A stretch of 64,000 bases of DNA from Holophagaceae bacterium (GCA_025357545.1 JANXPB010000147.1:8361-72360); one strand, 5' to 3'. Numbered from the stretch's first letter, positions 1,699 through 45,017 are shown. The notes: a model not told the origin generated them from the sequence alone. A program made the numbers and translations.

Positions 1699-3612
1699 CT
1701 AATCAAGCACAGGGTCCAGGTGGTAGGGGACCGAAATGACGATGACCTTGGGCTTGAGGAGCAGGGAACCTTTGATGCGCAGGGCGGTCTGGTTGTGGAG
1801 GAAGTTCTCCCACCAGTTGGAAGTGACATATTCAGGAATGATCACGGTGAGGATGTACTCGGGCTCGGCCCGGCGCATGCGATCGATCTCGTCCAGGATC
1901 GGCTCGACGATCTTCCGGTAGGGGCTGCGGATGGCCCGCAGTGGCACGCCCTCGCAGTAGTTGGGCCAGTCGGAGCGGAGCTTTTCCAAAGACTGGCTTT
2001 CGCGCCCGTGCTCATCGGGGAAATCCACCGTCACCGCTTCGATTTCTCCGTAATCCGCGATGGCGCGGGCGTAGGAAAGGGCATGTACGACCCCGTGGTG
2101 GATCCCGGAAACCAGCACCAGCACTCGGTTTTTATGCGGGTAGACGATATCGGTGCGACTGGCGGCCAGCTTGCTGCGCACCCGGATGTAGTGGCGGTGA
2201 ATGTTGAAGAACAAGAACACCAGGGAGGGCACCAGCAGCACGACCACCCAGACGCCGTGGGTGAATTTCGTGAAGATAATGATCATCATCACAGTGAAGG
2301 TAGTGATGGCGCCCAGGCCGTTGACACCCGCCTTCAGCTGCCAGTGCCGACCCTGCTCTTTCCACCAATGGAGGACCATTCCCGTCTGGCTAAGGGTGAA
2401 GCCGATGAAAACGCCCAAGGCGTAAAGGTCCAACAAGTGGCCTTCCCGCGCGTGAAAGAGGATCACCAGGGCAGCCGCCGCAACACTCAGGATGATGATG
2501 CCGTTGGAGAAGACGAGCCGGTCTCCCTGGCTGTTGAATTGGCGGGGCAGGAAGCCGTCCTTGGCATGCAGGGCGGCTAAGCGGGGGAAGTCCGCATAGG
2601 AGGTGTTGGCAGCCAGGGCCAAAATGGCCGTGGTGAAGAATTGGGTCACCAGGTAGGCCATCTTCCCCGCGCCGCCAAATCCGAAAACCTTGTGCCCCAG
2701 CATCGAGAGCAGGGTTTCTTCGGTGGTGAAGGAGTGGGAGAGGCCGAAGTGGTTCGATAGGTAGGTGATGCCCAGGAACATCGTCGCGAGCAGCGCCACC
2801 ATCCAACGCATGGTTTTGGCCGCATTGTGTGAGACCGGATCTTTGAACACTGGCACGCCGTTGGAGATCGCTTCGACTCCGGTCAAGGCGGTGCAGCCGG
2901 CCGCATAGGCCTTCGCGAACAGGACGATGGCCGCCCACTTGGTCATATCGCTGAGGTGGGGGACTTGGCGCTGCACCTGATCCAGCAGTTCCGCATCAGT
3001 GTGGGTTAGAGCCCGGTACATCCCCACCGCAAGGAGGGAGAGGATGCAGACCACGAAGCCGTAGGTGGGGATGGCGAAAATGACCCCGCTCTCCTTCACC
3101 CCGCGAAGATTCATCATGGCCACGAAGGCGATGATCAACAGCGCCAGGGCCACCCGGTGGGGATCCATCGCCGGAAAGGCCGACGTGATGGCACTCACGC
3201 CCGAGGATACGGACACCGCCACCGTCAGGATGTAGTCGATGAGGAGGGAAGCCCCGGCAGTCTGCGCGGCCACCTCGCCCAGATTGTCCTTGGCTACGAG
3301 GTAGGCCCCGCCGCCGTTGGGATAGGCATGGATGGTCTGGTTGTAGCTGACCATCAGGATCAGGAGCAACATGGTGATGCCAAGGGCGGCGGGCCAGGAC
3401 CAGCCGATGGCGCCGAGGGCCAAGGCGCCGGTCAATCCTGCGGCCGGGGCCGCCAAGGTGATGGTGTTCATGATCGATTCCGTGCCATAGGCCACGGAAG
3501 AGAGCGCATCGGAACTGAAGACAGCCAGGGCTACCGGGTTGCTGATCTTGGTGTGGTGGATCTCCTCGCTGGCCAAGCGCCGGCCCAGGAGGATGCGTCG
3601 AAAATTGAACAT
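1699..3612 (-). CDS. APC-superfamily permease with large cytoplasmic C-terminal domain
   Basis: 637 aa. N-terminus RRILLGRRLASEE...LAVFSSDALSSVAYGTE is typical of this APC permease subfamily. About 12 hydrophobic segments, then a ~200-aa soluble tail. Confidence 0.8.
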   Translation of the reverse strand: MFNFRRILLGRRLASEEIHHTKISNPVALAVFSSDALSSVAYGTESIMNTITLAAPAAGLTGALALGAIGWSWPAALGITMLLLILMVSYNQTIHAYPNGGGAYLVAKDNLGEVAAQTAGASLLIDYILTVAVSVSSGVSAITSAFPAMDPHRVALALLIIAFVAMMNLRGVKESGVIFAIPTYGFVVCILSLLAVGMYRALTHTDAELLDQVQRQVPHLSDMTKWAAIVLFAKAYAAGCTALTGVEAISNGVPVFKDPVSHNAAKTMRWMVALLATMFLGITYLSNHFGLSHSFTTEETLLSMLGHKVFGFGGAGKMAYLVTQFFTTAILALAANTSYADFPRLAALHAKDGFLPRQFNSQGDRLVFSNGIIILSVAAAALVILFHAREGHLLDLYALGVFIGFTLSQTGMVLHWWKEQGRHWQLKAGVNGLGAITTFTVMMIIIFTKFTHGVWVVVLLVPSLVFLFFNIHRHYIRVRSKLAASRTDIVYPHKNRVLVLVSGIHHGVVHALSYARAIADYGEIEAVTVDFPDEHGRESQSLEKLRSDWPNYCEGVPLRAIRSPYRKIVEPILDEIDRMRRAEPEYILTVIIPEYVTSNWWENFLHNQTALRIKGSLLLKPKVIVISVPYHLDPVLD

Positions 3613-4006
3613 ATAGAACCTGTCAGAGCGCGGGGCGAGCCCCCACGAAAACCATCAATTTGAATCGAGGGCTTTGACGATGGCGCCCGGATGTGGAGCC
3701 TGGAACCAGCCGCCCACACCACAAATGAACCGCCCCTCCTGGAAAACCCAATCCTGCCTCGTCCCCGACTTAGGGAATCCCGGATTATGAAGGCATCCTC
3801 ACCAGGAGTCACGCCCTCCCTTCAGCCCCGCAGAAGGGGATTTCACCCCAATCCGCTACTTGGCCCTTGAGTTTCTGGGTGATCTTCGTCACATTTAGGC
3901 GCGATCCAACACCCTAAGTCAGTCACCCACTCAGTTGCAGTGGCCCCCTTTCAACCTGGACCCCGCTACCGGGATGTCCCCGCGGCGTTGCCGCAAGGAG
4001 CAGAAC

Positions 4007-4378
4007 ATGAACCGAAAGCTCACCACCCTCGCCACCCTCTTCGCCGCTGGCGCCGTCGTGGCCACCTCCGCCGCGCCCCGTGCCACCGCCGCCTCCGCCA
4101 AGTCCAGCTCTGACAAGACCCTCCTGGAAGTTGGCTGTGGCGCCGACAAGAAGGATGGCAAGGATGCCAGCTGCAGCGCCGACAAGAAAAAAGACGGTAA
4201 GGATATGAAGGACCACAAGTGTGGCAAGGACATGAAGGACGGCAAGTGCGGCAAGGAGCACAAGTGCGGTAAGGATATGAAGGATGGCAAGTGCGGCAAG
4301 GACAAGAAGGGCGCCAAGGATTCCAAGGACAAGAAGGATGCTTCTTGCGGTAAGGGCTCCTGCGGTTCCAAGCACTGA
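4007..4378 (+). CDS. Secreted Cys-repeat peptide, putative RiPP precursor (MNIO substrate)
   Basis: ATG at 4007 preceded by AAGGAG (3995-4000). Sec-type signal MNRKLTTLATLFAAGAVVATSAAPRATA, then a K/D/G-rich core with 8 Cys: VGCG, ASCS, HKCGK x2, DGKCGK x2, ASCG, GSCG. Lies immediately upstream of DUF692 and DUF2063 genes. Confidence 0.75.
   Translation: MNRKLTTLATLFAAGAVVATSAAPRATAASAKSSSDKTLLEVGCGADKKDGKDASCSADKKKDGKDMKDHKCGKDMKDGKCGKEHKCGKDMKDGKCGKDKKGAKDSKDKKDASCGKGSCGSKH
4214..4300 (+). repeat. Tandem coding repeat inside the precursor (2 x 42 nt encoding HKCGKDMKDGKCGK, 3-nt spacer)
   Basis: 4214-4255 and 4259-4300 differ at 4 positions, all synonymous third-codon positions (tgt/tgc, ggc/ggt, gac/gat twice). 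Confidence 0.9.
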
Positions 4379-4398
4379 GTTCGGCAGCTTTTTAATCC

Positions 4399-4429
4399 AG
4401 AGGGGGGAGGCATCACGTCTCCCCCCTCT
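4399..4429 (+). terminator. GC-rich hairpin between precursor and MNIO genes (candidate attenuator or partial terminator)
   Basis: AGAGGGGGGAG (4399-4409), 9-nt loop, CTCCCCCCTCT (4419-4429): a perfect 11-bp stem starting 21 nt after the precursor stop. No long U-tract follows. Confidence 0.4.
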
Positions 4430-4446
4430 TCCATTCAAGGCGCCCC

Positions 4447-5346
4447 ATGACCCCCTCCGGGACCCCCTCCGGGACCCCCTTCAGCGGTGTTGGCGTCGGA
4501 CTGCGCCGCCCCCACCTGGCCCAGGTGGCGGCCCTGAAAGCGAGTCCGGTGCCCTTCTGGGAGATTGCGCCTGAGAACGTGGTGGGCCAGGGTGGCACCC
4601 GCCATCGCCAAGTCATGCAGATCCTGGAGCGGGATCCGGTCCTCACCCACGGGCTCTCCATGTCCATGGGGGGCTTCGACGCCTGGGAGCGGGACGTCCT
4701 CGACAACCTGCGCGGCTTCCTGAAGGCCACCCAGTCGCCTTGGCACTCCGAGCACCTGTGCTGGAGCAGCTTTGGCGGCGCCAACACCCATGAATTGCTG
4801 CCCATGCCCTTTACCCGGGAGGCCGTACAACACTCCATATTGCGGACCCGCCAGCTCCAGGCGGAACTGCCCGTGCCCTTCCTGTTCGAGAATGTCAGCT
4901 ACTACGCGGAGCTGGGCGCAGCAGAAATGTCCGAAAAACAGTTTCTCGCCGAGGTCCTCGAAGGCGCGGATTGCGGCTGGTTGCTGGACATCAACAACGT
5001 GTATGTGAACAGCCGCAATCACAGCTTCGATGCCAAGGAATGGCTGGAGGGGATGCCGCTCCACCGGGTGCAGCAACTTCACATCGCTGGGCATGCCTGG
5101 TTCGAGGAGGACCAGCTCGTCATCGATACCCACGGAGCCCCGGTCATCGACCCGGTCATCGAGCTGATGCAGTGGGTGTTGCCACGGATCGGCCGGGCCG
5201 TGCCGGTGCTGCTGGAAAGGGACAACGACATCCCCGCGCTGGAGGAGCTGCTGGCTGAACGTGCAGCGCTGCAAAAGGCCTATGACGTGGCCTTGGACCC
5301 ACTATCAGTATCTGGGCCGGGGTCTGGAGGCTCCTCCCGTGGTTGA
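4447..5346 (+). CDS. DUF692 / multinuclear non-heme iron oxidase (MbnB-, BufB-, HvfB-like)
   Basis: Family-typical motifs: GVGVGLRRPH, WHSEHLCW, FLFENVSYY, LLDINNVYVNS, HIAGH, LERD. Confidence 0.88.
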   Translation: MTPSGTPSGTPFSGVGVGLRRPHLAQVAALKASPVPFWEIAPENVVGQGGTRHRQVMQILERDPVLTHGLSMSMGGFDAWERDVLDNLRGFLKATQSPWHSEHLCWSSFGGANTHELLPMPFTREAVQHSILRTRQLQAELPVPFLFENVSYYAELGAAEMSEKQFLAEVLEGADCGWLLDINNVYVNSRNHSFDAKEWLEGMPLHRVQQLHIAGHAWFEEDQLVIDTHGAPVIDPVIELMQWVLPRIGRAVPVLLERDNDIPALEELLAERAALQKAYDVALDPLSVSGPGSGGSSRG

Positions 5347-6121
5347 ACCGGCTGAACGTACCTCGGCCCTGCAAGGCTGTCTGGCCGACCTTCTCCTGGA
5401 CCAGGACGGGCATTCCCTCTTTGGCGCAGATCCAGCTGCCTTTGGCGCGGCCCGGCAACTCCATATGGAGGACCAGGCGGCTCTGGCCCATTACAAATCC
5501 CGCCTCCTCACCTACCGCAGCTTGGTGCGCTCCGCCCTGGAAGACCCCCTGCCGGACTGCTTTCCCTTCACCCACGCCCTGTTGGAAAAGGCTGGGCAGT
5601 GGGCAGCTTGTGTGGATGCATTCCTGGGCAGCAGATCCATCCAGAGCAGCTATTACCGGGACGTGAACCCCGCCTTCGTAGCGTGGCTGGCTCAGAGCGG
5701 TTGGGGGCAGGACCGTTGGCCCTTTCTACTGCAGCTCGCCCACTACGAATATATTGAGGTTGAGATTCTCCGTTGGCCCGATGAGGCCCCTCAGGTGGAT
5801 CTAGGGGCGCTTCCCAAAGCGGACCTTTACGTGGTCTTCGACGGCACCGTGCGCAACCTCGCCTATGCCTATGCGGTGCAGGACGCCAGTGGCGGCAACC
5901 CGGAACCCGATGCCGGCGAGACGTACCTCCTGGCCTATCGGGATGGCGCGGGCGATTTCCAGGCCTCGACCTTGAGCCCCCATGCCTCGGCCTTCCTGGC
6001 CCGGTGCCTGGAAGGGGAAAGGGTTGGCGAAGCCGCCCGAGCCCTGGGCCTGCCCTTGGAGGATGGCTTGGAGTTGCTGTGGTCACTTCACGCGAAGGGC
6101 GCCGTCCTCGGCTTCCGATAG
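5339..6121 (+). CDS. DUF2063-type MNIO partner protein (MbnC-, BufC-, HvfC-like role)
   Basis: Frame of ORF 5261..6121. GTG at 5339 overlaps the MNIO stop (GTGGTTGA), giving ~260 aa typical of DUF2063. ATG at 5261 is an alternative start. Assignment rests on position directly after DUF692, size, and weak recall of family features. Confidence 0.6.
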   Translation: MVEPAERTSALQGCLADLLLDQDGHSLFGADPAAFGAARQLHMEDQAALAHYKSRLLTYRSLVRSALEDPLPDCFPFTHALLEKAGQWAACVDAFLGSRSIQSSYYRDVNPAFVAWLAQSGWGQDRWPFLLQLAHYEYIEVEILRWPDEAPQVDLGALPKADLYVVFDGTVRNLAYAYAVQDASGGNPEPDAGETYLLAYRDGAGDFQASTLSPHASAFLARCLEGERVGEAARALGLPLEDGLELLWSLHAKGAVLGFR

Positions 6122-6152
6122 TCCGATAGTCTGGAAGTCGGAGTGCCTGACC

Positions 6153-7079
6153 ATGCCCCGCTTCCCCAAACGCACCGGCCGCGAGGCTTTGACTGACCAT
6201 CCGCGCCTGCCGGACTGGATCACTCAAGAGCGAGTGAACCTGCGGGAGCTGCATGAAATGAAGGCCGCCCTGCGGGACAGCCACCTGCACACGGTCTGCG
6301 AAGAGGCCCGCTGCCCCAACCGCGCCCACTGCTTCAGCCACGGCACCGCCACCTTCCTGCTCATGGGCGACACCTGCACCCGGGCTTGCGGCTTTTGCGC
6401 CATCCAGAGCGGCAAGCCGAACCTGCTGGACCCGCTGGAACCCGAAGCGACCGCTTCCCAGGTGGAAGCCCTGGGCCTGCGCTACGCGGTGCTCACCAGC
6501 GTCAATCGCGATGACCTGCCCGATGGGGGCGCCGCCCATTTCGCCGCCACCATTTTAGCCATCCGTCGTCGCTGCCCCACCACCCAGGTGGAAGTCCTCA
6601 CGCCAGACTTCCTGGGAGACCTCTCGGCCGTGGCCCAGGTGGTGGCTGCGGGGCCCGCGGTCTTCAACCACAATACCGAAACTGTGCCCAGCCTCTACGC
6701 CGAGGTGCGCCCGGCTGGCCGTTTCGAACGCAGCCTTTCCGTACTCCGCGAAGCCAAAGGCCTGGGCTCAGCCCTTTTCGGCGAAGGCTTCCGCACCAAA
6801 AGCGGGCTCATGTTGGGCCTAGGGGAGACCGAAGCCGAGCTGTTGTATGTGTTCGCAGCCCTGGTGGAGGCTGGCGTGGACATCCTCACCTTGGGCCAAT
6901 ACCTGCGCCCCACCCGCTATCAGCTGCCCGTGAAGCGCTATGTCACCCCGGAGGAATTCACAAATTTTGGAGCCAAGGCCAAGGCACTCGGCTTCAAGAC
7001 CGTCTATGCGGGCCCTTTGGTGCGCAGCAGCTTCAACGCCTACGAGGTGAGCGAGATGGAAGGCATCGCCATCGCCTGA
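6153..7079 (+). CDS. lipA: Lipoyl synthase
   Basis: CEEARCPNRAHCF and radical-SAM CTRACGFCAI motifs. ATG at 6153 (MPRFPKRTG...). The ORF part upstream of 6153 overlaps the previous gene. Confidence 0.93.
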   Translation: MPRFPKRTGREALTDHPRLPDWITQERVNLRELHEMKAALRDSHLHTVCEEARCPNRAHCFSHGTATFLLMGDTCTRACGFCAIQSGKPNLLDPLEPEATASQVEALGLRYAVLTSVNRDDLPDGGAAHFAATILAIRRRCPTTQVEVLTPDFLGDLSAVAQVVAAGPAVFNHNTETVPSLYAEVRPAGRFERSLSVLREAKGLGSALFGEGFRTKSGLMLGLGETEAELLYVFAALVEAGVDILTLGQYLRPTRYQLPVKRYVTPEEFTNFGAKAKALGFKTVYAGPLVRSSFNAYEVSEMEGIAIA

Positions 7080-7087: not shown

Positions 7088-8446
7088 TCAACGCACCCAG
7101 CCACCGCCTTCCAGCACGGCAAGATTGCGCCTGGGCATTTCGTAGTCCGGTTTCAGACGGAGGGCTTCGCGATAGGACCGCATTGCCCCCTCATAGTTCC
7201 CAGCCGCGCCGTAGGCGGTGCCCAGATTGTTGAGGGCTCGGGGATTGTCGGGCTGGGCATGGAGGCTGCTCTCCCAGAGCGCGATCTCCGTGCGGTAGTC
7301 CTGGTTTCGCACCACCGTGAGCAGCCCCAGAAGCAGAATCAGGCCTCCGATGGCGGCCCGCCCGAGCCGTGAGGGCCCCATTCCAGACAACCCGATGGAG
7401 AGCACGAGGAGCGGCCCCACCGAAGCGAGGTAGAGCTGCCGCTCATTGACCAGGTCCAAACGGGGCACCACGGAATTGGTGGGAACCAGGTGCAGGAAGG
7501 CCCACAGGATCCCAAAGGCCAGCCAAGGACGGCGGCGCACGCTCCAGATCCCCAAGGCCAGAAAGCCCAGGAGCAGCGCCAGCTCCGCCGCAAGACCCCA
7601 GGTCCAACGATGAAACACGGGCAGCACTGGATCGATGTTGAGGGGGTGCGGCCAGGGCAACTTCACCAACAGCCAGGTGGCCCCATGGATCTGGCTACGC
7701 AGGTTGTCCAGCAGGCTCCGCTGCTGGAAGCCGAAACTCAGTAGGCGGCGGTAGTCCCCATGGAGGGCCAGGAGCAGCCCCACCCCCCCCAACGCTACCC
7801 AATGTACCGCGGGCCCGCGGAAGGGACGGGGCTTCGTGGCGCCCGTGAGTTCCCACAGCATCAAGGTCATCGGCAGGGTGACGGCGGTTTCCTTCGTCAG
7901 GAATGCCAGCAAAAAAAGGAGCGGGGAGACGCCCCATTGCAGCATCTTGTCTTGGGTTACCCGGCCCCGGATATAGGCCAACAAGCTGCCTAGGTAGAAG
8001 GTCGCCATGAGCGACAGCGATCGCCCCGAAATGTAGGTGACGGCTTCGGTCTGCACCGGATGAAGGGCCCAGAGCAGCGCAGCCAGGAAGGCCGCTTGAG
8101 CGTTCGGCTTGGACACCCCCTCGTTGGGTTGAGGCGCTGTCCAGCGACAGAGTACGTGGTAGAGCAATGCCGCATTGGCCGCATGCAGAACCACGTTCAG
8201 AAAATGGAAGCCGAGGGGGCCTTGATCCACAGCCCAGTTCAAGGCGTAGCTGGCCTTGAGGAGGGGCCGGATGCCTGCGGCGCCGGCCAGCCATGCGGAT
8301 CCCGAGCGGATGGCGGGGTTGTCCACGATCACTTTGAAATCATCGAACTGGAAGGCGCCTCGCAACGCATTTGCGTAGGCCAGCAGCACCGCGCAGATCA
8401 AGACACCGAGGTGCCGCGAGCGGGTGCCTTCCCCGCCGGGGGCCAT
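7088..8446 (-). CDS. Polytopic membrane protein with C-terminal TPR repeats (TMTC/PMT_2-like glycosyltransferase-type architecture)
   Basis: N-terminal FQFDDFKVIVDNP motif, ~10 hydrophobic segments, and C-terminal TPRs (ALNNLGTAYGAAGNYEGAMRSYREALRLKPDY). Confidence 0.65.
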   Translation of the reverse strand: MAPGGEGTRSRHLGVLICAVLLAYANALRGAFQFDDFKVIVDNPAIRSGSAWLAGAAGIRPLLKASYALNWAVDQGPLGFHFLNVVLHAANAALLYHVLCRWTAPQPNEGVSKPNAQAAFLAALLWALHPVQTEAVTYISGRSLSLMATFYLGSLLAYIRGRVTQDKMLQWGVSPLLFLLAFLTKETAVTLPMTLMLWELTGATKPRPFRGPAVHWVALGGVGLLLALHGDYRRLLSFGFQQRSLLDNLRSQIHGATWLLVKLPWPHPLNIDPVLPVFHRWTWGLAAELALLLGFLALGIWSVRRRPWLAFGILWAFLHLVPTNSVVPRLDLVNERQLYLASVGPLLVLSIGLSGMGPSRLGRAAIGGLILLLGLLTVVRNQDYRTEIALWESSLHAQPDNPRALNNLGTAYGAAGNYEGAMRSYREALRLKPDYEMPRRNLAVLEGGGWVR

Positions 8447-9198
8447 CAGATGGGCTTGGGTTTGGGGATCGGCGCAGGTTTGGCGATGGGTGCGGGCTTC
8501 GCCATGGGCCTCGGGCCTGCAGGAGGGGTGGCGCCATTTTCATGGTCGGAGGTAGGACCGGTCGTGTGGTAGGAAGTGCCATCCCGCTCCAGTACTGGCT
8601 TCTTCCCGCATTCTTTCAACAGCCTGGCCAGTTGCTGGTCCACGAACTGGACCTCCTGCGCATAGCCCCGAACTTCCTCCAGGATGTACTCCGCCAGCGT
8701 GGCCTTCCTCCAGGAGAACCGATCTCCCTCTGAGTCACCCCACATGTTCCCCAGGACGGTCTTCATGTCATCAAAGGCCGCCTGTTGGTGCACCAGTTCA
8801 TGCTGCCGGATGCCCTCCCGCAGGCAATCCGTCGGGGCCTTGATGTTCATGACACCCACATTGGAGGTTTCGCCAGTGGCATGGGTGGATCGGCCCCTCT
8901 GGGTCGCCAGATCGTTCAGAATTTTCTGCACTTCAGCCTTGAGGAAATTCTTGTCCCGGATTGTATAGGGTGTCCGCGCGGCCAGCTTCACCCTGGAAGC
9001 AAAGGCCTGCTGGGCCGCTAGGACTTCTTCCCGCCGGAGCTTTAGATCCTCGATGTCCTTGCAGCCGCATTGGGCCTCGGCCCGGGCCGGCGCCAGCAGG
9101 AGGAGCAGCGGCAGAGCGGAATGGAACCATCGGGCCAAGGGCATCAGAACCTCCATGAACGCGCACTTCAGAATCAACATCCAACGCCATGCACCCAT
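8446..9198 (-). CDS. Secreted hypothetical protein with HExxH motif and Pro/Lys-rich tail
   Basis: Signal-like LPLLLLLAPARAEA (true start may be the MPLARW Met near 9144). HELVH motif, 4 Cys, C-terminal KPAPIAKPAPIPKPKPI. Its stop overlaps the start of the downstream TPR membrane protein. Confidence 0.5.
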   Translation of the reverse strand: MGAWRWMLILKCAFMEVLMPLARWFHSALPLLLLLAPARAEAQCGCKDIEDLKLRREEVLAAQQAFASRVKLAARTPYTIRDKNFLKAEVQKILNDLATQRGRSTHATGETSNVGVMNIKAPTDCLREGIRQHELVHQQAAFDDMKTVLGNMWGDSEGDRFSWRKATLAEYILEEVRGYAQEVQFVDQQLARLLKECGKKPVLERDGTSYHTTGPTSDHENGATPPAGPRPMAKPAPIAKPAPIPKPKPI

Positions 9199-9210: not shown

Positions 9211-9591
9211 TCAACCCTCCAAGGCCTTCCGCGCCACGTCCATCAACTGGGCCACGAAGGCTTCGCTCGGTTCCAGGAATTCCGCACCGATCATCAGATA
9301 GCCGGGCCTTGCGGACTGGCCTCGCATGGAGGAAAAAGCGATGCGCGCCCGGGTGGGTGGCGCGGGCAAACTGGGATCATCCCAGCGGAAATACTCCAAG
9401 GGGTGGCCGGGTTCGAACTGGAAATGTTGGGCGTGCCGCTCCTCCACCCACGCGCCAAAACCCCCGGCGCCGATGGTGATGATCTCCACGTTATCGATCC
9501 ACATGCCTTCGGACATGAAGCGAGCCTTGAAGGGGCTCGGCAGATTCAAACGCTCGAAACGTCTCGGGTCTTCAGTATCGGACATGGGCAA
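9211..9591 (-). CDS. PilZ-domain-like protein
   Basis: RRFER (RxxxR) near the N-terminus and a later ITIGAGGFG resembling the (D/N)xSxxG element. 126 aa. Confidence 0.4.
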   Translation of the reverse strand: MPMSDTEDPRRFERLNLPSPFKARFMSEGMWIDNVEIITIGAGGFGAWVEERHAQHFQFEPGHPLEYFRWDDPSLPAPPTRARIAFSSMRGQSARPGYLMIGAEFLEPSEAFVAQLMDVARKALEG

Positions 9592-9674: not shown

Positions 9675-10124
9675 ATGCGCTGGTTCATTCTTCTTCCCGG
9701 AATACTGGGTGTCGCCGCCGTCGTACAGGGCGGCCTCAACCGCCAACTTTCCAATACCTGGGGCCTCAGCAGCACCGCGCTTTTCAATACTTTGATTCTG
9801 CTGGCCGCGGCCCTGTTCCTCTTCGCTTTGGCCCGGGTTCGGCCGGACCTGCTGCCGGACTTCTTCCGCATCAAGGGGAGTCTTGACGCCTTCCGCTGGT
9901 GGTACTTGATTCCCGGCCTCTGCGGGTTGGCCTTGGTAGTGGGAATTCCCTTCGCCATCCATCGCGTGGGAGCCTTCCCTGTCTTCCTGGGAATCCTCGG
10001 CGGTCAACTGGTGATGAGTCTAATCTGGGACGCGCTGGTGGAGCACCGGCCCGTCACAGCCATCCGCATGGCCGGGGCTGCGCTGGCGATTGTTTCCGCC
10101 TGGATGGTGGGTCGTCAGGGCTGA
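9675..10124 (+). CDS. DMT-superfamily membrane protein (DUF606/YdcZ-like)
   Basis: 149 aa with 5 hydrophobic segments. N-terminus GVAAVVQGGLNRQL is typical of DUF606. Confidence 0.6.
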   Translation: MRWFILLPGILGVAAVVQGGLNRQLSNTWGLSSTALFNTLILLAAALFLFALARVRPDLLPDFFRIKGSLDAFRWWYLIPGLCGLALVVGIPFAIHRVGAFPVFLGILGGQLVMSLIWDALVEHRPVTAIRMAGAALAIVSAWMVGRQG

Positions 10125-10693
10125 GCAAGGAAGGTTATCCAGGCCTCCGGGGTGTTGAGGTTCAGCACCACCTTGGGATCCACTACCGGCACCCGATGGA
10201 TTGGGACCAGTCCCAACTGATGGTCCAGCCGCGCCCCAGGGCTTGCAGGATCCACCCTCCGAAGCCTCTGGATGAGGGCCTTGGACAATAGTACTGGATG
10301 GCCTCCACGCCCTTCGAAGGTCGGGATGACCGCCTCCGCTCCCTGATTCAATACCCATTCCAGCGCCTTCAGGGCTCCAGGCACCGGCACATCGATTGGA
10401 TGGATCCAGGCGGGTCCAGCCAGGCCCTCCAGCCCGATGAGCAGCGAAGAGAAGGGGCCGCGCTCCGGCTCCTTGTTCAATCGGGTTGCGACCCACGGAA
10501 GCCCTGCCAGCACGGGGTTGTAGGCATTTGCATCGGTGCCCAGCACCAGGATGATGGTCTGGAAACCCTGGTTGCGGATCACCTCGACCTGGGCCCGGAG
10601 CCAAGGTCGACCCCGGTAGTCCAGCAGGCCTTTGGGCTGGCCCATGCGCGTGGAGGCCCCGGCCGCCAGCAGCACGAAGGCCGGGCCCTTCAA
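10115..10693 (-). CDS. mocA: Molybdenum cofactor cytidylyltransferase-like nucleotidyltransferase (MocA/MobA family)
   Basis: LLAAGASTRMGQPKGLL signature. Overlaps the XdhC stop by 4 nt and lies at the end of the molybdoenzyme operon. Confidence 0.75.
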   Translation of the reverse strand: MKGPAFVLLAAGASTRMGQPKGLLDYRGRPWLRAQVEVIRNQGFQTIILVLGTDANAYNPVLAGLPWVATRLNKEPERGPFSSLLIGLEGLAGPAWIHPIDVPVPGALKALEWVLNQGAEAVIPTFEGRGGHPVLLSKALIQRLRRVDPASPGARLDHQLGLVPIHRVPVVDPKVVLNLNTPEAWITFLAQP

Positions 10694-11490
10694 GATTGAG
10701 CCACCCGCAGCAGTTGCGCGGCGATGCTGATGGCCACTTCCTTGGGCGCCTTGCCGCGGCCCAGATCCAGGCCGATGGGACAGTGCACCCGCGCTAATTT
10801 GGATGCACTAACCCCTGCCTTCTTCAGAATGGATTGAAAACGGACCCATTTGGTCTTCGAGCCGATGAGCCCCAGAAAGGCCAAATCGCGCTCGACGAGG
10901 TCGGCGAGGATCTCCCTATCCAGCTCATGGCTGTGGGTGAGCACCGCCGCATGCACTCGACTGGACCATTCAGCCGTTTCGACGAACTCCAGCCAGGTTC
11001 CCGGATGCTTTTGGACTGAAGCTGGCAGCTCTGCATTCCCGATCCATTCCGGGCGGGAATCGACGAGGTGAACCTGAAATGCCGTGCCCTCCAGGGCTTG
11101 GCAGAGGGCCTGCCCCACATGGCCTGCGCCAAAGAGGTACAACAGCGGCCCGGCATTCAGCACCTCGATGAGCACGTCGGTGCTGCCGCCGCAGCATTGG
11201 CCGGCGCGGATGCACAGAGGGTAGTGCCGCACACAGGCCTCGCCTTTGTGCAAGGCGGCTTGGGCGTCTTCGGTGACCAGCAGTTCCAGCTTGCCGCCAC
11301 CAATGCTGCCATGGACGCGGCCCGTGGCGGTCACCAGCATCTTGGCGCCCAGGTCCCGGGGCGTGGACCCGTCCACCCGGATGACCGTCACCAGGGCCAC
11401 CGGGACCCCTTGGGCAGTCAGGTCCCGAAGGGCCTCAAGCCATCCGGTCGAAATGCTCAACCATCTCCTCCAGTAGTTGTCCCAGCACAT
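10690..11490 (-). CDS. xdhC: XdhC/CoxI-family molybdoenzyme maturation protein
   Basis: ALVTVIRVDGSTPRDLGAKMLV...GSIGGGKLE plus a Rossmann-like LFGAGHVG. Start is uncertain because it overlaps the upstream gene end. Confidence 0.85.
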   Translation of the reverse strand: MCWDNYWRRWLSISTGWLEALRDLTAQGVPVALVTVIRVDGSTPRDLGAKMLVTATGRVHGSIGGGKLELLVTEDAQAALHKGEACVRHYPLCIRAGQCCGGSTDVLIEVLNAGPLLYLFGAGHVGQALCQALEGTAFQVHLVDSRPEWIGNAELPASVQKHPGTWLEFVETAEWSSRVHAAVLTHSHELDREILADLVERDLAFLGLIGSKTKWVRFQSILKKAGVSASKLARVHCPIGLDLGRGKAPKEVAISIAAQLLRVAQS

Positions 11491-12316
11491 TGGCGGCCAC
11501 GGTGCGCCGATACTTCGCCGTGCTGCGGATGTCGTCGATGGGCCGGATGTCCTCCATCAAAGCTGTCCGCGCTGCGGCGATCAGCAGGGTGTCGACCACA
11601 CAGCCCTCTACCATCAGTTCCACGGTTCTGGCGCGCACGGGCACGGGCGCCACGCTGCCGAGCCCCAGGCGGAACTCCACCACCCGGCCTTCCTCCACCC
11701 GCGCGTAGGCCGCCACGCAGACTTTGGCGATAGCCTGGGCCTTGCGGGTACCCACCTTGCGGAAGAAGTGGAAGTTATTGCCCTTGGGACGTCGGATACG
11801 GATGCGCGTGATCAATTCCTCCGGCAGCATCACGGTCTGCTTGTAGCCCGTGTGGAAGTTCTCGTAGGGCACCCAGCGGGATCCGGCGATGGATTGGAGC
11901 TGCACCTCCGCACCATAGGTCAGCAGGCTGGGCGGCGTATCTGCGGCGGGGCTTCCATTGGCGAGATTGCCCCCCAGGGTGCCGCGGTTCTGGATGGCGA
12001 TGGCTCCGGTCACCCAGGCACTCTGCACGAGGTTAGGAAACTCCCGCTGCAAGAGGGAATGGTTGCGAATCTCCGAATAGGTGCTCAGCGCCCCCAGGGT
12101 GATGGCGTCTTCGGAGATTTCCAGACCTCGCAATTCTTCGAGGCCCCACAGGTTCAGGAAATCCATGAAGGGCAGCTTGCCAGCAGCGAAAGGAACCATT
12201 AGATCGGTGCCCCCAGCCAGGGGCCGCCAAACACCCTTCTCGGCCGCCAAGAGCTCAAGGGCCCCTGCGAGGGAGGCGGGTGTGTGGACCCGGCAACCGG
12301 GGGCCTGGCCCTTCAT
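11435..12316 (-). CDS. FAD-binding subunit of xanthine dehydrogenase-family molybdoenzyme (CoxM/XdhB-like)
   Basis: ATG at 12316 overlaps the stop of the 2Fe-2S gene. LAGGTDLMV FAD-binding motif and IQNRGTLGGNLANGSPAADT. The longer ORF to 12544 is an in-frame upstream extension. Confidence 0.88.
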   Translation of the reverse strand: MKGQAPGCRVHTPASLAGALELLAAEKGVWRPLAGGTDLMVPFAAGKLPFMDFLNLWGLEELRGLEISEDAITLGALSTYSEIRNHSLLQREFPNLVQSAWVTGAIAIQNRGTLGGNLANGSPAADTPPSLLTYGAEVQLQSIAGSRWVPYENFHTGYKQTVMLPEELITRIRIRRPKGNNFHFFRKVGTRKAQAIAKVCVAAYARVEEGRVVEFRLGLGSVAPVPVRARTVELMVEGCVVDTLLIAAARTALMEDIRPIDDIRSTAKYRRTVAANVLGQLLEEMVEHFDRMA

Positions 12317-12831
12317 GGATTGGCTCCAGCGCCTGCCTGGAGGGCCTGTTCCGCCACTGCCACCGCGCGCTTCGCAGCCGATGCAACGGAATCCACGATC
12401 TTCACATAGCCCGTGCAACGGCATAGGTTGCCCGCGAGGCCATCGCGGATCTGGGCCTCGTCGGGCTGCGGGCAGCGACGCAGCAGGTCCACGGCAGCCA
12501 TGACCATGCCCGGTGTGCAGATGCCGCACTGGGCCCCGCCGCACTCAAGGAAGGCTGCCTGCACTCCATGGAGCTGTTCGCCATCGGCCACGCCTTCGAT
12601 GGTGCGCAACTCCGCGCCCTGGGCCTGCGCCGCGGGCACCAGGCAGCTGTTCACCAGCTTGCCGTCGAGGAAGACCGAACAGGCCCCACACTCGCCTTCG
12701 CCACAGCCTTCCTTGGTCCCCGTCAAGTCAAGCTCTTCCCGGATCACATCCAGAAGGCGCGCCATGGGCCAGGCCTGAACTCTGCGAGCCACTCCATTTA
12801 CTTGTATAGATAATGTCATTTTTTCAGGCAT
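12313..12831 (-). CDS. [2Fe-2S]-binding small subunit (CoxS/XdhA-like)
   Basis: CGEGECGACSV, CGICTPG and CRCTGY cluster motifs. Confidence 0.92.
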   Translation of the reverse strand: MPEKMTLSIQVNGVARRVQAWPMARLLDVIREELDLTGTKEGCGEGECGACSVFLDGKLVNSCLVPAAQAQGAELRTIEGVADGEQLHGVQAAFLECGGAQCGICTPGMVMAAVDLLRRCPQPDEAQIRDGLAGNLCRCTGYVKIVDSVASAAKRAVAVAEQALQAGAGANP

Positions 12832-15061
12832 TGGATGGCTCCAGAATCTCCATGAGCCGCTCGGGCGTCAGGGGGATCTCCCGCGGCAACGTGGTGCCCA
12901 GGGCGTGCTGAACCGCGTTGAGCAGGGCCGGGGCGGGGCCATCCATGGGCAATTCGCCGATGCCTTTAGCGCCACCAGGGCCCAGCGCGTAGGGATTCTC
13001 TTCAAAATAGACCCGGATGCGGGGCAGGTCCGCACTGGTGGCCATGATGTAGTTGGTCATCTGTCCGTTGGCCATTCGTCCATTGTTCCAAACGACCTGC
13101 TCTGAAAGTCCATAGCCGATGCCCTGGGCCACACCGCCTTCGATCTGTCCTTCAGCCAGAACGGGGTTCAGGACCCGGCCCACTTCCTGGAGGGCGACGA
13201 AATCCTCCACTTTCACTTCGAAGGTGCGGGTATCCACAATCACCTCTGCGGCGTAGCAGGCCCAGGCAAAGGTCGTGTAGGCGTCCCCCTTGTACAACTG
13301 GTCATCCCAGACGATGTGCGGCGGAGTGCTGTATTGAGAGTAGGCCTTCAGCCGGCCGAATTTCTCGAGATAGGCCTTCACCGCTCGCGAAAACGCTTCG
13401 CCATCGTAGGGCTCTGGCAGCAGGCCGGACTGGACCAACGTCTGGCGCAGGCCCTGGGCCGCGTCCTGCACTAGTTTGCCCACCACCATGCAGGTGCGCG
13501 AAGCTACGGTGGGACCACTGTTAGGAACCACGGCGGTGTCTGGCTGGGCCACCTCCACGCACTCCATGGGCACCCTCAAGGCCTCGGCCACCACCTGGCT
13601 GAACATGGTGTTCGTGCCCTGGCCGATCTCCGTGGAGGCTGCCAGCACATATACTTTCCCATCGGAACGGCCCTCCACGCCCGCGACGGAGGCCAGATAG
13701 GTTTCCCCCGCTCCAGTGAAGCCGCAACCATGCATGAAGACCGCGAAGCCGACCCCCTTTTTAATGGGCGCCGAAGCGCGGTTGGTGATGTCGTATTGGT
13801 GCTTTTTTGATACGTAATCCAGCTTCTCCAGGGCCCGATCCAGGATGCCTGGTAGATCAAGAGTCTCTTTGATGATCTGGCCCGTGGCGGTGGTGTCGCC
13901 CATCTTTAGTAGATTGCGCTTGCGAAGCGCGATGGGGTCCATCCCCAACTGCGCTGCGGCTACGTCCATGTGCCGCTCGATGGCAAAGAGGCTCTGGGGG
14001 GCGCCGAAGCCCCGGAAGGCGCCGTGGGGTGGTGTGTTTGTGGCCACTGCCCGCGCGTGGATGCGGGTGTTCGCGCAACGGTAGGGGCCACCGGCGTGGA
14101 TGGCGCCACGGCTCAGCACCACCGGAGTCAGAGTTACGTAGGCGCCACCGTCAATGGCGAAATCCAAATCGAGGGCCAACAGGGTTCCCTCGGTGTCGAA
14201 AGCGCTGCGGATGCGGGTGCGGGAGGGGTGGCGTTTGGTAGTGGCCACCATGTCCTCTTCCCGGTCGTAGATGATCTTCACCGGGCGTCCACCGGCCTTC
14301 ATGGATAGCAGGGCGGCGTGCCCCGCGATCAGGCTGGGGTAGTCCTCCTTGCCGCCGAAGCCGCCGCCGGTCTCCATCTGGATGATGCGAACTTGATCAT
14401 CTGATAGGTTAAAGAGTGATTTAATAGCTTTGTGTACATAGTATGGGCACTGCAAGGAGCCCCATACAGTGACCCCGCCCGCGTCCGCCACAGCGATGGT
14501 GCCATTGGGTTCGATGTAGAGCTGCTCCTGGGCCCCGGTGCGGTATTCGCCCTCGACGATGTGCGCGGCGGTCTTCCATACGGAATCCACCTCGCCCTTC
14601 TCGATCAGCAGCTCCTTGAAAAGATTGTCCTGCCCCCAGACCACCTCTTTGCAGGCCAGTGAATCCTCCAGGTCCAGCAAGGGCGGAAGCGCCTCGATCT
14701 CCAAGCGCACGGCCGCGCGGGCCCGCTCGAGCAGGAACCGATCCTCGTGGGCCAGCAGCAGCACGGCTTCCTCGGCGTGGTTGATCCGGTCCGCCACCAG
14801 GAAGGGCTGGTCATGCTCGATGAGCGCCACCATGGGATCTCCCGGCACGTCCTTGGCGGTGACGATGACGAATTCATTCCAGGGAATCCCATCCCCGAAC
14901 TGGATCCCTCGGAGAATGCCTCGGGGGACCGGCGATCGGACCGTCGCACCATGCAGGAGCCCCTCCATCCGCACGTCGTCGGTGTAGTGGGCAGCGCCCG
15001 TCACTTTGGCCCTTCCCTCTTTCCGGGGTCGTGAGTGTCCGAGGTGGAGCGGCTGGGTCAT
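12824..15061 (-). CDS. Molybdopterin-binding large subunit, xanthine dehydrogenase/aldehyde oxidase family
   Basis: 745 aa. GGGFGGK motif, RAFGAPQ-like FRGFGAPQ, and an overall CoxL/XdhB-like layout. Confidence 0.92.
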   Translation of the reverse strand: MTQPLHLGHSRPRKEGRAKVTGAAHYTDDVRMEGLLHGATVRSPVPRGILRGIQFGDGIPWNEFVIVTAKDVPGDPMVALIEHDQPFLVADRINHAEEAVLLLAHEDRFLLERARAAVRLEIEALPPLLDLEDSLACKEVVWGQDNLFKELLIEKGEVDSVWKTAAHIVEGEYRTGAQEQLYIEPNGTIAVADAGGVTVWGSLQCPYYVHKAIKSLFNLSDDQVRIIQMETGGGFGGKEDYPSLIAGHAALLSMKAGGRPVKIIYDREEDMVATTKRHPSRTRIRSAFDTEGTLLALDLDFAIDGGAYVTLTPVVLSRGAIHAGGPYRCANTRIHARAVATNTPPHGAFRGFGAPQSLFAIERHMDVAAAQLGMDPIALRKRNLLKMGDTTATGQIIKETLDLPGILDRALEKLDYVSKKHQYDITNRASAPIKKGVGFAVFMHGCGFTGAGETYLASVAGVEGRSDGKVYVLAASTEIGQGTNTMFSQVVAEALRVPMECVEVAQPDTAVVPNSGPTVASRTCMVVGKLVQDAAQGLRQTLVQSGLLPEPYDGEAFSRAVKAYLEKFGRLKAYSQYSTPPHIVWDDQLYKGDAYTTFAWACYAAEVIVDTRTFEVKVEDFVALQEVGRVLNPVLAEGQIEGGVAQGIGYGLSEQVVWNNGRMANGQMTNYIMATSADLPRIRVYFEENPYALGPGGAKGIGELPMDGPAPALLNAVQHALGTTLPREIPLTPERLMEILEPSNA

Positions 15062-15113
15062 GCAGATCCTTGAGGCTTCGCAAAGCTAGCAGGGATGCGG
15101 CCCTGACGCAATT

Positions 15114-15761
15114 CTAGCGGCGCGGTATCACGGTGATCGCCGGGCTGGGTGTGGGACACCCGAACACACAGAGCCCGCAGCCGGTGCAAAATTCCTCCAT
15201 GACTTCAGGGTGGGGAATGCTGCCATCTGCGGTATCCACGACCTGGATCGCCACGCCGGGATAGGGACAGCGGTCCACACAAGTGCGGCAGGCCTGGGCC
15301 TCGTGGTCCTCCCGCTGGAAGGTCAGGCAGAGCTTCTCCAGGATGTGCGCCGTACCCATCTGCACCGCCCGGGGGCCATCCAGGGCCTCTCCGGTCTTCG
15401 TGGTGCGCGATGGCCATAGCAGCGCGCCGGCCTCCTCGGGGCAGGCTTTGATGCAGGGCAGGTCCGTGCAGAGGAAGCAGGGCATGCCGCGAGGATCGAT
15501 GTACGGGGCATTGAGCCCCAAGCCCATGGCCGGGCCGCCCTTGAGGATGGCATCCTGGGGACAGGCCGGGATGCAGTCCCCGCACCGGGTGCAGGCCGTC
15601 AGAAAGGCGAATTCATCCAGCGCCCCAGGCGGGCGCAGCGCCCGAGGGCTGGCCTTCGTGATGGCCTCTTCCACCTGTTCCGCCATGAAGCCAGCCACAA
15701 GCGTCCCCAAGGACTTGAAGAAGTCGCCGCGGCCTTGAGGTTGATCGAGTTTTTTTGCCAT
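15114..15761 (-). CDS. 4Fe-4S dicluster ferredoxin-type protein (NapG/MauM-like)
   Basis: Several CxxCxxCxxxCP-type motifs (CTRCGDCIPACP, CRTCVDRCP, CTGCGLCVFGCP). First gene of the molybdoenzyme operon. Confidence 0.8.
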   Translation of the reverse strand: MAKKLDQPQGRGDFFKSLGTLVAGFMAEQVEEAITKASPRALRPPGALDEFAFLTACTRCGDCIPACPQDAILKGGPAMGLGLNAPYIDPRGMPCFLCTDLPCIKACPEEAGALLWPSRTTKTGEALDGPRAVQMGTAHILEKLCLTFQREDHEAQACRTCVDRCPYPGVAIQVVDTADGSIPHPEVMEEFCTGCGLCVFGCPTPSPAITVIPRR

Positions 15762-15774: not shown

Positions 15775-16599
15775 TCAAAGACCCAGTAGACGCAGGGTGG
15801 GCCTTAGCACGCCCCAGAGGATGGGATCGAAGCCGAGGATGATCGTGCCCCGGGTGTTGCCGTCTGAAAGGGTCAAATGCACCAAGGCATCGGAGTTCAC
15901 TGCCACCTCGCGGCTGGTGGGTGGGTGCGCGGCCCAGGCTACGCCAAGCGGCGGTGGGTTCTGTGCGAGAACCTGGCCAGGGGCGGCTTGCAGGTTCAGC
16001 ACCAGCAAATCCCCGTGGAAGGTCGGTGTGCGGACCTCCACTAGGCTCCCCCTGGGGACCTGCGGCACCAACTCGAAGGCGGCGCGGTAGCCCAGGTCGG
16101 TGGTGTCAGGATCCTCGCCCTTGATCACCGCGGTGGTCTGCGCCATGAGGCCATCCAGCCCCTCGTCTCCCAGGTGGGCGATGGAACGAAGGTGGGTGCC
16201 GGAAACGGCACCCAGGCCCGCCACCAAGGACGGCAGCAGGCTCAGCACCTGGTCCAGAGCGGGGCGCCCTCGGAATCGCAGGGTGCCCGCGGGCCACGCG
16301 TCGATGAGCGGCATGGGTTCACCCGAAACCGCGGGGTCTGCATCTGCGCGCAGGTCGAGGATGCGGCCGGGGAAATGATCCAGGAGGTGGGGATCCGAAG
16401 GCGTATCAGCCAGTATGATGACGTCCAGGCCTTCCAGCAGCGTGGGTTCCGGCGCGAACACGATGAGATCGCCTTCCTCGTCCTGTTTCGTCATGGGGCC
16501 CGTGGTCAGGGGCAGCACCGAGCATTCCTGGGGCTCCAGGGAGCCCACCAGTTCGCGTCCCAGGAGGGTCTGGGCACCGATCACCGCAAGCTTGAGCAT
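15775..16599 (-). CDS. Semialdehyde-dehydrogenase-like protein lacking a catalytic Cys (function unknown)
   Basis: N-terminus LAVIGAQTLLGRELV resembles the Asd/ArgC NAD-binding fold. Only 274 aa, with a single Cys at residue 26. Confidence 0.45.
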   Translation of the reverse strand: MLKLAVIGAQTLLGRELVGSLEPQECSVLPLTTGPMTKQDEEGDLIVFAPEPTLLEGLDVIILADTPSDPHLLDHFPGRILDLRADADPAVSGEPMPLIDAWPAGTLRFRGRPALDQVLSLLPSLVAGLGAVSGTHLRSIAHLGDEGLDGLMAQTTAVIKGEDPDTTDLGYRAAFELVPQVPRGSLVEVRTPTFHGDLLVLNLQAAPGQVLAQNPPPLGVAWAAHPPTSREVAVNSDALVHLTLSDGNTRGTIILGFDPILWGVLRPTLRLLGL

Positions 16600-16608
16600 G
16601 TTCTTCCT

Positions 16609-23451: not shown

Positions 23452-23491
23452 GCGAGGACTCAACTGCAGGTCCCGAAACCCTCACATCGAC

Positions 23492-33655: not shown

Positions 33656-33886
33656 GGGGACCACCGGTGATGAATGCGCACCCAATCCAGCATGAGCAGC
33701 AGAGACGGCTGCAAGGGTCTGAGGGATGTATGCGCGGGATGGACACTCTAGCACTGCCACCCAACCTGGAATACCCCTCAGAAGGGGAAGGATTGGCAAG
33801 AATCCCCCTTGAGGAAATAGGCGATCTCCCATAGACTCGAAGGTTCGCCTGCGCCCTTGAGTTGGGCCGAGGCCACGAGGTGGACC

Positions 33887-34021
33887 ATGAAACGCACATT
33901 CCAGCCGAACAATCGACGCCGCGCCAAGACCCATGGCTTTTTGTCCCGCATGAAAACAAAGAACGGACGCATGGTGCTGAAGCGCCGCCGCGCCAAGGGC
34001 CGCCACGTCCTCGCTCTTTAA
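33887..34021 (+). CDS. rpmH: 50S ribosomal protein L34
   Basis: Hand translation gives [44 protein letters not shown]. Too short for the ORF track. Confidence 0.95.
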
Positions 34022-34048
34022 TTCCGCCATGCCCGCCATGCAGGTGGC

Positions 34049-42734: not shown

Positions 42735-42777
42735 AGGGGACCTCTGGCTTGAGAAGGAAAGAAGCGGGTGAAAAAGA

Positions 42778-44863: not shown

Positions 44864-44890
44864 GAGAACCTCGGAACCCTTCAGTATAGC

Positions 44891-44945
44891 TTAGGGACCG
44901 TAACGAATAACCGGTGCTCTTCCGGTTATTCGTTACGGTCCCTAA
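44891..44945. repeat. Perfect 24-bp-stem inverted repeat (7-nt loop)
   Basis: TTAGGGACCGTAACGAATAACCGG - TGCTCTT - CCGGTTATTCGTTACGGTCCCTAA. Intergenic, between the ftsY start and the upstream TPR gene stop. Confidence 0.9.
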
Positions 44946-45003
44946 TGCCGGACGAAGTCCGGCGCGATGGGTGGTGCTCCGAGGAAGATCGAAGGAGCTG
45001 TTC

Positions 45004-45017
45004 GTTCCACGTGGAAC
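45004..45017. promoter_or_regulatory. Perfect palindrome GTTCCACGTGGAAC (candidate operator)
   Basis: Intergenic, 5 nt from the TPR gene stop and ~140 nt upstream of ftsY. A 13/14 match is at 28261-28274. Confidence 0.3.

Follow-up and report, generated by a model that had tools for sequence, protein, structure and literature searches.

What does a bacterium of the family Holophagaceae make from a small open reading frame (ORF) rich in Lys and Cys that lies directly ahead of a DUF692 enzyme gene, and does the encoded peptide form a class of its own? The locus in question occupies positions 4007-6121 of a 64,000-nt stretch of DNA (GCA_025357545.1 JANXPB010000147.1:8361-72360; hereafter the window), which has a G+C content of 62.7%. 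Gene calls and profile matches identify there a cluster of three genes, encoding a precursor peptide, a multinuclear iron oxidase (MNIO, DUF692) and a PME1-type partner protein. We estimate at roughly 70% the probability that this cluster is a captophorin-type (bufferin/oxazolin-like) operon for a ribosomally synthesised and post-translationally modified peptide (RiPP), in which the iron enzyme makes a secreted copper-binding peptide. The locus does not represent a separate precursor class: the class to which it belongs was described in 2024-2026, and it forms an as yet unstudied Acidobacteria branch that differs at the sub-family level (leader, repeat geometry and one selectivity residue).

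The enzyme and its partner

The middle gene (4447..5346, + strand) encodes a protein of 299 aa that matches Pfam PF05114 with E=3.7e-90 and is predicted to be a Cys-modifying MNIO. All metal-ligand motifs (HGLS, HSEH, FEN, DINN, HIAGH, DTHG, and ERD) are present and align with those of FonB-type enzymes. Among NCBIfam models, HvfB and BufB give 273.8 and 271.3 bits, versus 92 for ApyH, 49 for ChrH, and 34 for MbnB. Sequence identity is 42% to FonB and 36.5% to HvfB (sequences from the supplement of PMC13097082), and the best PDB match is 3BWW. Arg15, Arg16, Asp249, and Phe250 are substrate-contact or catalytic residues of FonB, and Arg15, Arg16, and Phe250 are conserved in Lys-Cys MNIOs (PMC13097082). 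The two arginines and the catalytic Asp249 are kept in the window enzyme, as R20/R21 and D259.

The third gene (5339..6121, + strand, GTG start) encodes the 260-aa partner, made of a DUF2063 N-domain and an RRE-like C-domain. Its start overlaps the MNIO stop by 8 nt (GTGGTTGA), as it does in homologous loci, and this overlap couples translation of the partner to that of the MNIO. Gene calls in public assemblies give an identical product of 260 aa. A PDB sequence search with the partner gave no match. The protein scores 33.8 bits with Pfam DUF2063/HvfC_N (gathering threshold 27.2) and 25.1 bits with NGO1945_C (just under 27), and it is 31% identical to FonC (sequence from the supplement of PMC13097082). 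The AlphaFold2 model, built from 45 homologues, reaches a pLDDT (predicted local distance difference test) of 96.4; because Foldseek places it closest to NGO1945 (3DEE), the reference PME1 (TM-score 0.76 on the target), and then to TglI, we assign it to the PME1-type DUF2063+RRE proteins.

The precursor peptide

The first gene (4007..4378, + strand) runs from an ATG at 4007 to a TGA at 4376-4378 and encodes 123 aa. A ribosome-binding site, AAGGAG (3995..4000, + strand), lies 6 nt ahead of the ATG, and the surrounding GCAAGGAGC is kept in close relatives. The product begins with MNRK and a 19-residue hydrophobic stretch, and has A-T-A|A at residues 26-29; from inspection of these n, h, and c regions, residues 1-28 (4007-4090) would form a Sec/SPase I signal peptide cut after A28. 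Inspection of the sequence found no lipobox Cys. The mature part (95 residues) contains 28 K, 16 D, 14 G, and 8 Cys, with a net charge of +10. The Cys residues stand at positions 44, 56, 72, 81, 87, 96, 114, and 119, and all but C56, which is followed by Ser, precede a Gly. Two 15-residue repeats, HKCGKDMKDGKCGK[E/D], lie in tandem (4214..4303, + strand; aa 70-84 and 85-99) and are identical at 40 of 45 nt; they hold four [D/E][G/H]KCG motifs, with Cys spacings of 9 and 6. The number of repeats differs among relatives, which carry 4 to 12 Cys in all, and the best conserved element of the core is the C-terminal DASCGKGSCGSK. In the AlphaFold2 prediction the precursor is disordered (pLDDT 46.7) and does not form a beta-helix, the fold reported for mid-size EGKCG proteins.

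Compared with the closest loci, the sense frame has a dN/dS of 0.06-0.12 at a synonymous divergence of 0.7-1.2, which argues strongly for a real gene under strong purifying selection. A 171-aa ORF on the minus strand (3923-4438, GC3 0.79) spans the whole precursor gene, and gene finders could mis-call it. We rejected it as a gene: it is a by-product of an AAG/GAC-rich sense strand, and the sense-frame dN/dS backs the plus strand.

We found 65 homologues of the precursor, all of them from Holophagaceae or Acidobacteria metagenome-assembled genomes (MAGs) and none with a name. Searched against 1.84 billion representative proteins, the precursor profile matched 110 clusters at E<=1e-3, or 22 when the threshold is E<=1e-10, so that this is a small family. 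Matches to SclB collagen-like and L23 models were discarded as spurious, low-complexity hits. Within the clade, M1, F12, and A14 are invariant, and the h-region of the signal peptide (ATLFAAG) is the best conserved N-terminal element, being retained even in Holophaga and Mesoterricola. Across the clade, Cys is preceded by K, S, or G (R in Holophaga) and followed by G or S, many precursors using SCS or SCG in place of KCG. The most divergent precursors (homologous loci L037 and L040 in Holophaga sp., and L034 in Mesoterricola) have Arg for Lys, with RCGRRCSTQPRCGRRC... and HRCGGGHRCGG repeats, and also retain an ATLFAAG-type signal peptide.

These observations bear out all that a preliminary description of the window had seen in the three genes: a 123-aa ORF with a strong ribosome-binding site and a Sec-type signal peptide, a K/D/G-rich core with seven of its eight Cys as Cys-Gly, a DUF692 protein with the full motif set, and a DUF2063-like third ORF overlapping the DUF692 stop. 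Its overall claim of a RiPP cluster combining an MNIO and a DUF2063 partner with a Cys-rich precursor bearing a signal peptide is supported.

Relationship to Lys-Cys precursors

Systems of this kind have been described recently. HvfBC modifies six Cys in the AEGKCGEGKCG repeats of HvfA, which bears a signal peptide, with a loss of 4 Da each, and modified HvfA binds Cu(I) at about one per pair of modified residues (PMC11252979); the preliminary description had given these properties (EGKCG repeats, signal peptide, copper binding) correctly. In HvfA, C38 and C43 form a disulfide. Bufferins are described in PMC11626156. A Lys-Cys group of captophorins, comprising oxazolin, fontiphorin, and gonophorin, has been defined, and the oxazolone/thioamide structure of oxazolin has been revised to 5-thiooxazoles, which are likewise formed in the other two; the conversion of Cys to 5-thiooxazole removes 4 Da and gives absorption at about 305 nm, and the product binds Cu (PMC13097082). 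Catalogued precursor groups include Buf1, Buf2, Buf_EGKCG/oxazolin, CxxxxC, and adjamnio groups, and hundreds of ORFs beside MNIOs of the same large cluster are unnamed and encode a signal peptide and 1-18 Cys (PMC12452194). A supplementary taxonomy table counts three Holophagales MNIO-PME1 clusters (PMC13097082), while no Holophagaceae entry was found in the part of the PMC12452194 supplements that was available.

In a scan of one genome per species, MNIO relatives at 58-84% identity occur in Holophagaceae only (MAGs plus the cultivable Geothrix rubra Red803, locus L023, and Mesoterricola and Holophaga); beyond this family, identity falls to 41-47%, in Nitrosomonas and various Gammaproteobacteria. 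The gene order within Holophagaceae, namely permease (minus strand), precursor, MNIO, partner, and lipA, is kept in about 30 loci/genomes. Among the outside loci, 35 of 46 have an EGKCG/oxazolin-type precursor upstream of the MNIO, in which an NPF..L..GYMQLA segment and EGKCGEGKCG repeats accompany a signal peptide. When the remaining 11 were searched more widely in six frames, EGKCG precursors turned up in two more loci (L079 and L086) and AGKCG-type repeats in L074 and L076. As the outside relatives lie mostly beside EGKCG precursors, the MNIOs of Holophagaceae form a sister group to the Lys-Cys enzymes.

The precursors themselves lead to the same place. We aligned 24 EGKCG precursors, chosen by MNIO similarity only, and compared them by hhalign with the alignment of Holophagaceae precursors, which gave a probability of 97.7% (E 1.4e-12) over the Cys-rich core only; the Holophagaceae profile also recruits EGKCG-type proteins at E 1e-9 to 1e-3. 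Over 48 residues, the C-terminal half of the window precursor shares 50% identity with HvfA, and its SCGKGSCGSK end has the C-x4-C spacing of the KCGEGKCGSK ends of HvfA and FonA. Exact EGKCG, the commonest of the repeated Lys-Cys 5-mers of this group, is absent from it, the four [D/E][G/H]KCG motifs being found instead. Intermediate sequences exist: P0204 combines KDASCGADKKKDGKCG with EGKCG, P0209 has DGKCG repeats, and P0215 has GCGADKKDDKDASCGADKK. Taken together, MNIO neighbours beside EGKCG precursors and the profile match indicate that the locus is a lineage-specific branch of Lys-Cys captophorins. The claim that the precursor class is uncharacterised thus survives only for the Holophagaceae branch, because no member of this branch has been studied experimentally; for the class as a whole, it is not supported, given the EGKCG neighbours and the hhalign match.

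In two outside loci from Nitrosomonas (L046 and L047), a 329-aa multicopper oxidase/cupredoxin-like ORF (about 4552-5541) lies just upstream of the EGKCG precursor, in keeping with a copper role of this sister group.

Regulatory and intergenic elements

A palindrome, GTGATCTTCGTCACA (GTGA-N6-TCACA), at 3879..3893 is a candidate site for a CRP/FNR-family regulator. It is invariant in eight aligned upstream regions that are otherwise 56% identical. Of 30 loci, 16 have an exact GTGA-N6-TCAC between -97 and -131 and five more have one with a single mismatch; six further loci retain its right half GTCACATT, and Holophaga and Mesoterricola lack the site. All loci together (955 kb) contain the pattern only 43 times. 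Exactly 21 nt past the palindrome lies a candidate -10 hexamer, TAAGTC (3915..3920, + strand), and this spacing to the TAnnnn/GCACCC-TA block is fixed in the aligned upstream sequences. Such a geometry is that of class II CRP/FNR-dependent promoters, and palindrome and hexamer may together constitute a class II activator-dependent promoter, with a predicted transcription start near 3927. A scan for the sigma-70 consensus found no promoter on the plus strand, and readings of the block as an extracytoplasmic-function sigma or a plain sigma-70 promoter were dropped, as the fixed 21-nt spacing suits neither. No Crp/Fnr-family protein was detected by Pfam among 30 window ORFs.

A 13-bp G+C-rich hairpin (4399..4429, + strand) separates the precursor stop from the MNIO start, the whole 68-nt spacer having a minimum free energy of -36.5 kcal/mol (z=-6.1 versus shuffles). 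In a terminator scan, the window hairpin failed the U-tract rule. Hairpins of 9-19 bp are found at the matching position in about 26 of 30 Holophagaceae loci; their stem sequences are unrelated and some have U-rich tails, and several EGKCG loci likewise have a hairpin behind the precursor gene. Judging from other RiPP operons, the hairpin probably raises the precursor:enzyme ratio, either via partial termination/attenuation or via transcript stabilisation. A scan of 3500-6300 with Rfam for riboswitches or leader RNAs gave no match at E<=1.

Proposed mechanism

The gene identities, the placement of the clade, the conservation, the retained motifs, and the partner fold are observed here, whereas the chemistry of the system, the timing of export relative to modification, and copper binding are deduced from characterised relatives. 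The 123-aa precursor would be produced in excess over the enzymes, helped by the hairpin past its stop codon. In the cytoplasm, the PME1 partner would bind the precursor and present it to the MNIO, the region bound probably being the conserved h-region of the signal peptide and/or the D-x-x-L-x-E-x-GCG segment (DKTLLEVGCG in the window precursor). Using its multi-iron site and O2, the MNIO would then convert Cys in [K/S/G]-C-[G/S] contexts to 5-thiooxazoles, with a loss of 4 Da per Cys at up to eight sites. FonB prefers a small residue after Cys, and FonBC fully processes DGKCG repeats, a natural variant, but not a Cys before a charged residue (PMC13097082); all eight Cys of the window precursor are followed by a small residue (Gly or Ser), matching this preference. 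Sec would export the modified peptide and the signal peptide would be removed after A28, leaving a disordered Lys/Asp-rich product whose paired thiooxazole sulfurs could bind periplasmic Cu(I), at a maximum of roughly four Cu per peptide, and which could thereby buffer copper stress. An exported metallophore, as the preliminary description had also proposed, is the best reading by homology: every characterised MNIO-PME1 system forms 5-thiooxazoles and yields Cu-binding products (PMC13097082, PMC11626156, PMC11252979).

Neighbouring genes

Upstream and divergent from the cluster lies a gene for a 637-aa APC-family permease (1699..3612, - strand; Pfam AA_permease_2, E=2.9e-29). Most Holophagaceae loci have it ahead of the precursor gene, with 61-86% identity; it is a conserved neighbour whose membership in the system is not shown. 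Downstream, lipA (lipoyl synthase; 6153..7079, + strand; Pfam Radical_SAM and LIAS_N) follows the partner gene after a 31-nt gap, in the place where the preliminary description had put it. This gap measures 12 nt in L001 and 120 nt in L004, and the two genes are also adjacent in L007-L014 and L038; lipA directly follows the partner gene in most close loci, while insertions separate them elsewhere. Like the permease gene, lipA is a conserved neighbour and not a known component, although it may be cotranscribed with the partner gene. That LipA is a copper-sensitive Fe-S enzyme protected by the product of the locus is speculation.

In one sub-branch of Holophagaceae (L026 and L027; 7580-12448), a 319-aa minus-strand ORF and two TonB-dependent-receptor-like ORFs of about 645 aa lie between the partner gene and lipA; the latter could hint at uptake of a metal-peptide complex. 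A DoxX-like gene in the Geothrix-type gap between partner gene and lipA was considered and ruled out, since the gap holds the 319-aa minus-strand ORF or TonB-receptor-like ORFs. The preliminary description had also noted that no DoxX, transporter, or regulator gene adjoins the cluster, and none was found among the neighbouring ORFs tested. Neither a second copy of the precursor or MNIO gene nor any other Cys-rich signal-peptide ORF was found in the 64-kb window.

Farther away, dnaN (30909-32042, -), dnaA (32273-34093, -), yidC (34410-36008, +), mnmE (36388-37782, +), and gatB (37831-39297, +) indicate that the window probably includes the origin region of the chromosome, some 28 kb away from the RiPP locus. 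A cluster for a molybdoenzyme of the xanthine-dehydrogenase/CO-dehydrogenase family (10115-15761, -) encodes a MobA-like NTP transferase, XdhC, a CoxM-like FAD subunit, a 745-aa molybdopterin subunit, and a 4Fe-4S dicluster protein; it is found near the RiPP locus in L001 too, and not in L004. Several ORFs of 100-560 aa that look conserved and have no Pfam family at E<=1e-3 or 1e-4 lie at 836-1591, 8446-9198, 9211-9591, 15775-17956, 22252-23463, and 41058-45061. The 250-aa ORF at 8446-9198 has a C-terminal Pro/Ala/Lys-rich repeat (PAPIAKPAPIPKPKPI).

Contrary evidence and alternative explanations

Several observations weigh against a copper-binding captophorin. The NPF..GYMQLA segment, a criterion that is unpublished and based on our own observation of 24 EGKCG precursors, is invariant in those precursors and absent from the Holophagaceae alignment. 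The match between the two alignments may be inflated by their common K/D/E/G/C composition; even so, the enzyme phylogeny points the same way as the precursor profile match. No curated model matched the precursor (NCBIfam up to E 10, Pfam at E<=0.01), and both the MNIO and its partner score below the equivalog cut-offs: the MNIO reaches 273.8 of 360 bits for HvfB (NF003818) and 271.3 of 310 for BufB (NF050167), and the partner 97.9 of 142 for HvfC (NF050145). The selectivity residue Phe250 of FonB is replaced by Asn260 in the window MNIO, this position being N, H, or T in all 35 Holophagaceae enzymes versus Phe in 43 of 46 outside relatives; the substrate rules of FonB may therefore not transfer to Holophagaceae. 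Pfam searches of 30 window ORFs found no DoxX gene, no copper- or metal-related gene, and no gene for a metal-sensing regulator. Many described Holophagaceae are anaerobic, whereas MNIOs need O2.

Two proteobacterial MNIOs (L074 and L076) also carry Asn at the Phe250 position, so that the switch is not unique to Holophagaceae; they have lost the second Arg and adjoin precursors with AGKCG/HGKCG repeats rather than EGKCG, a pairing that fits the published enzyme-substrate contact model. Cluster layouts without DoxX fall inside the published variation (PMC12452194).

The alternative that survives best keeps the same enzymes and substrate and assigns the product another role than copper buffering, such as binding of a different thiophilic or redox metal, quenching of oxidants, or service as a polycationic envelope-associated peptide. 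We regard this as unlikely, while giving it some weight: no copper gene, DoxX, or metal sensor adjoins the cluster among the window ORFs tested, the conserved upstream site resembles a CRP/FNR-family site more than a metal-sensor operator, the mature peptide is strongly cationic (+10), and the metal specificity and physiological roles of such peptides are left open in PMC12452194 and PMC13097082. Charge alone is not distinctive, however, because the copper-binding EGKCG peptides share a Lys/Glu-rich composition, and copper is bound by the product of every MNIO-PME1 system characterised so far.

It is improbable that the precursors are an independent class which converged on Lys-Cys-Gly motifs and may undergo another modification (oxazolone/thioamide). 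The lack of a curated model, a leader region without similarity to EGKCG precursors, a 15-aa repeat with Cys spacings of 9 and 6 versus C-x4-C pairs, Asn at the Phe250 position, and the SCS or SCG used for KCG by many clade members would all suit such an origin. Yet the MNIOs are sister to EGKCG-linked MNIOs, hhalign extends its 97.7% match across the core, both groups of precursors end in C-G-x-G-x-C-G-S-K, intermediate sequences such as P0204, P0209, and P0215 exist, and the oxazolone/thioamide of oxazolin has itself been revised to a 5-thiooxazole.

A functionally shifted captophorin system, with linked changes in recognition, selectivity, and regulation, is similarly doubtful as a joint proposal. 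Under it, substrate recognition would have moved to the conserved h-region of the signal peptide (ATLFAAG); the change from Phe to Asn/His at the selectivity site would admit K, S, or G before Cys; and a CRP/FNR-family redox/O2 sensor, not a copper sensor, would drive expression via the class II site. If it were true, mostly anaerobic bacteria would make an O2-dependent metal/thiol buffer upon exposure to oxygen, and this buffer might shield Fe-S enzymes, for example the LipA whose gene lies directly downstream.

Lastly, we consider it very improbable that the small ORF goes unexpressed or does not encode the substrate, with the hairpin acting as a full terminator and the MNIO pair modifying a product encoded elsewhere: although the hairpin between precursor and enzyme genes is strong, with a U-tract in some relatives, and the exact 123-aa sequence was not found in the protein collection, the sense frame is under strong purifying selection, the ORF accompanies the MNIO in those Holophagaceae loci that include the upstream region, another assembly (L087) has a gene call of 123 aa at that position, and the window contains no other Cys-rich signal-peptide ORF.

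A captophorin-type operon remains our preferred reading. It would add a conserved chromosomal locus of Holophagaceae (Geothrix, Holophaga, and Mesoterricola) to the captophorins, whose study has been almost confined to Pseudomonadota, and would provide an entry point to these peptides in Acidobacteria. The clade also offers natural substrate/enzyme pairs for testing the selectivity model, as it combines K/S/G-Cys-G/S contexts with Asn, His, or Thr at the Phe250 position. The locus opens no new chemistry class and answers no long-standing question.

Comparison with known systems

The closest known systems are the Lys-Cys captophorins (oxazolin, HvfABC of H. influenzae; fontiphorin, FonABC; and gonophorin, NgoABC), a group that PMC12452194 names Buf_EGKCG/oxazolin. 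They share with the window locus the order precursor-MNIO-PME1, a Sec signal peptide followed by a disordered core rich in Lys, acidic residues, and Gly with repeated x-G/H-K-C-G, a core ending in C-G-x-G-x-C-G-S-K, the partner fold of NgoC (3DEE), and, in the MNIO, Arg15/Arg16 and the catalytic Asp. They differ in that the window precursor carries DGKCG, DHKCG, and EHKCG, plus GCG, SCS, and SCG, but no exact EGKCG; its repeat has 15 residues instead of 17; NPF..GYMQLA is missing, Phe250 is replaced by Asn (N/H/T in the clade), and no DoxX was found; and the scores lie under the HvfB and HvfC equivalog cut-offs. In addition, the known family comes mostly from Pseudomonadota, and this branch occurs in Holophagaceae only.

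The bufferins (Buf1 with DUF2282; Buf2, also Buf_6/12Cys, the Cys-Lys group; BufABC(D); PMC11626156) likewise combine an MNIO and a PME1 protein with a Sec-exported precursor. The BufB score of the window MNIO (271 bits) is as high as its HvfB score, and a periplasmic copper chelator bearing 5-thiooxazoles, as in bufferins, is the product expected here too. In contrast to bufferins, the window precursor has no DUF2282 match (Pfam, E<=0.01), carries Lys-Cys-Gly rather than Cys-Lys motifs, and is predicted to be disordered instead of folded, and its locus shows neither DoxX nor a sigma/anti-sigma gene.

Methanobactin (MbnA/MbnB/MbnC) is more distant. Its enzyme belongs to the same MNIO superfamily and also turns Cys oxidatively into a copper-binding heterocycle, but the product contains oxazolone/thioamide and serves in copper acquisition. 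The window MNIO scores 34 bits with the MbnB model TIGR04159 (cut-off 325), its partner is a PME1 protein and not MbnC, and its precursor has a Sec signal peptide instead of a leader.

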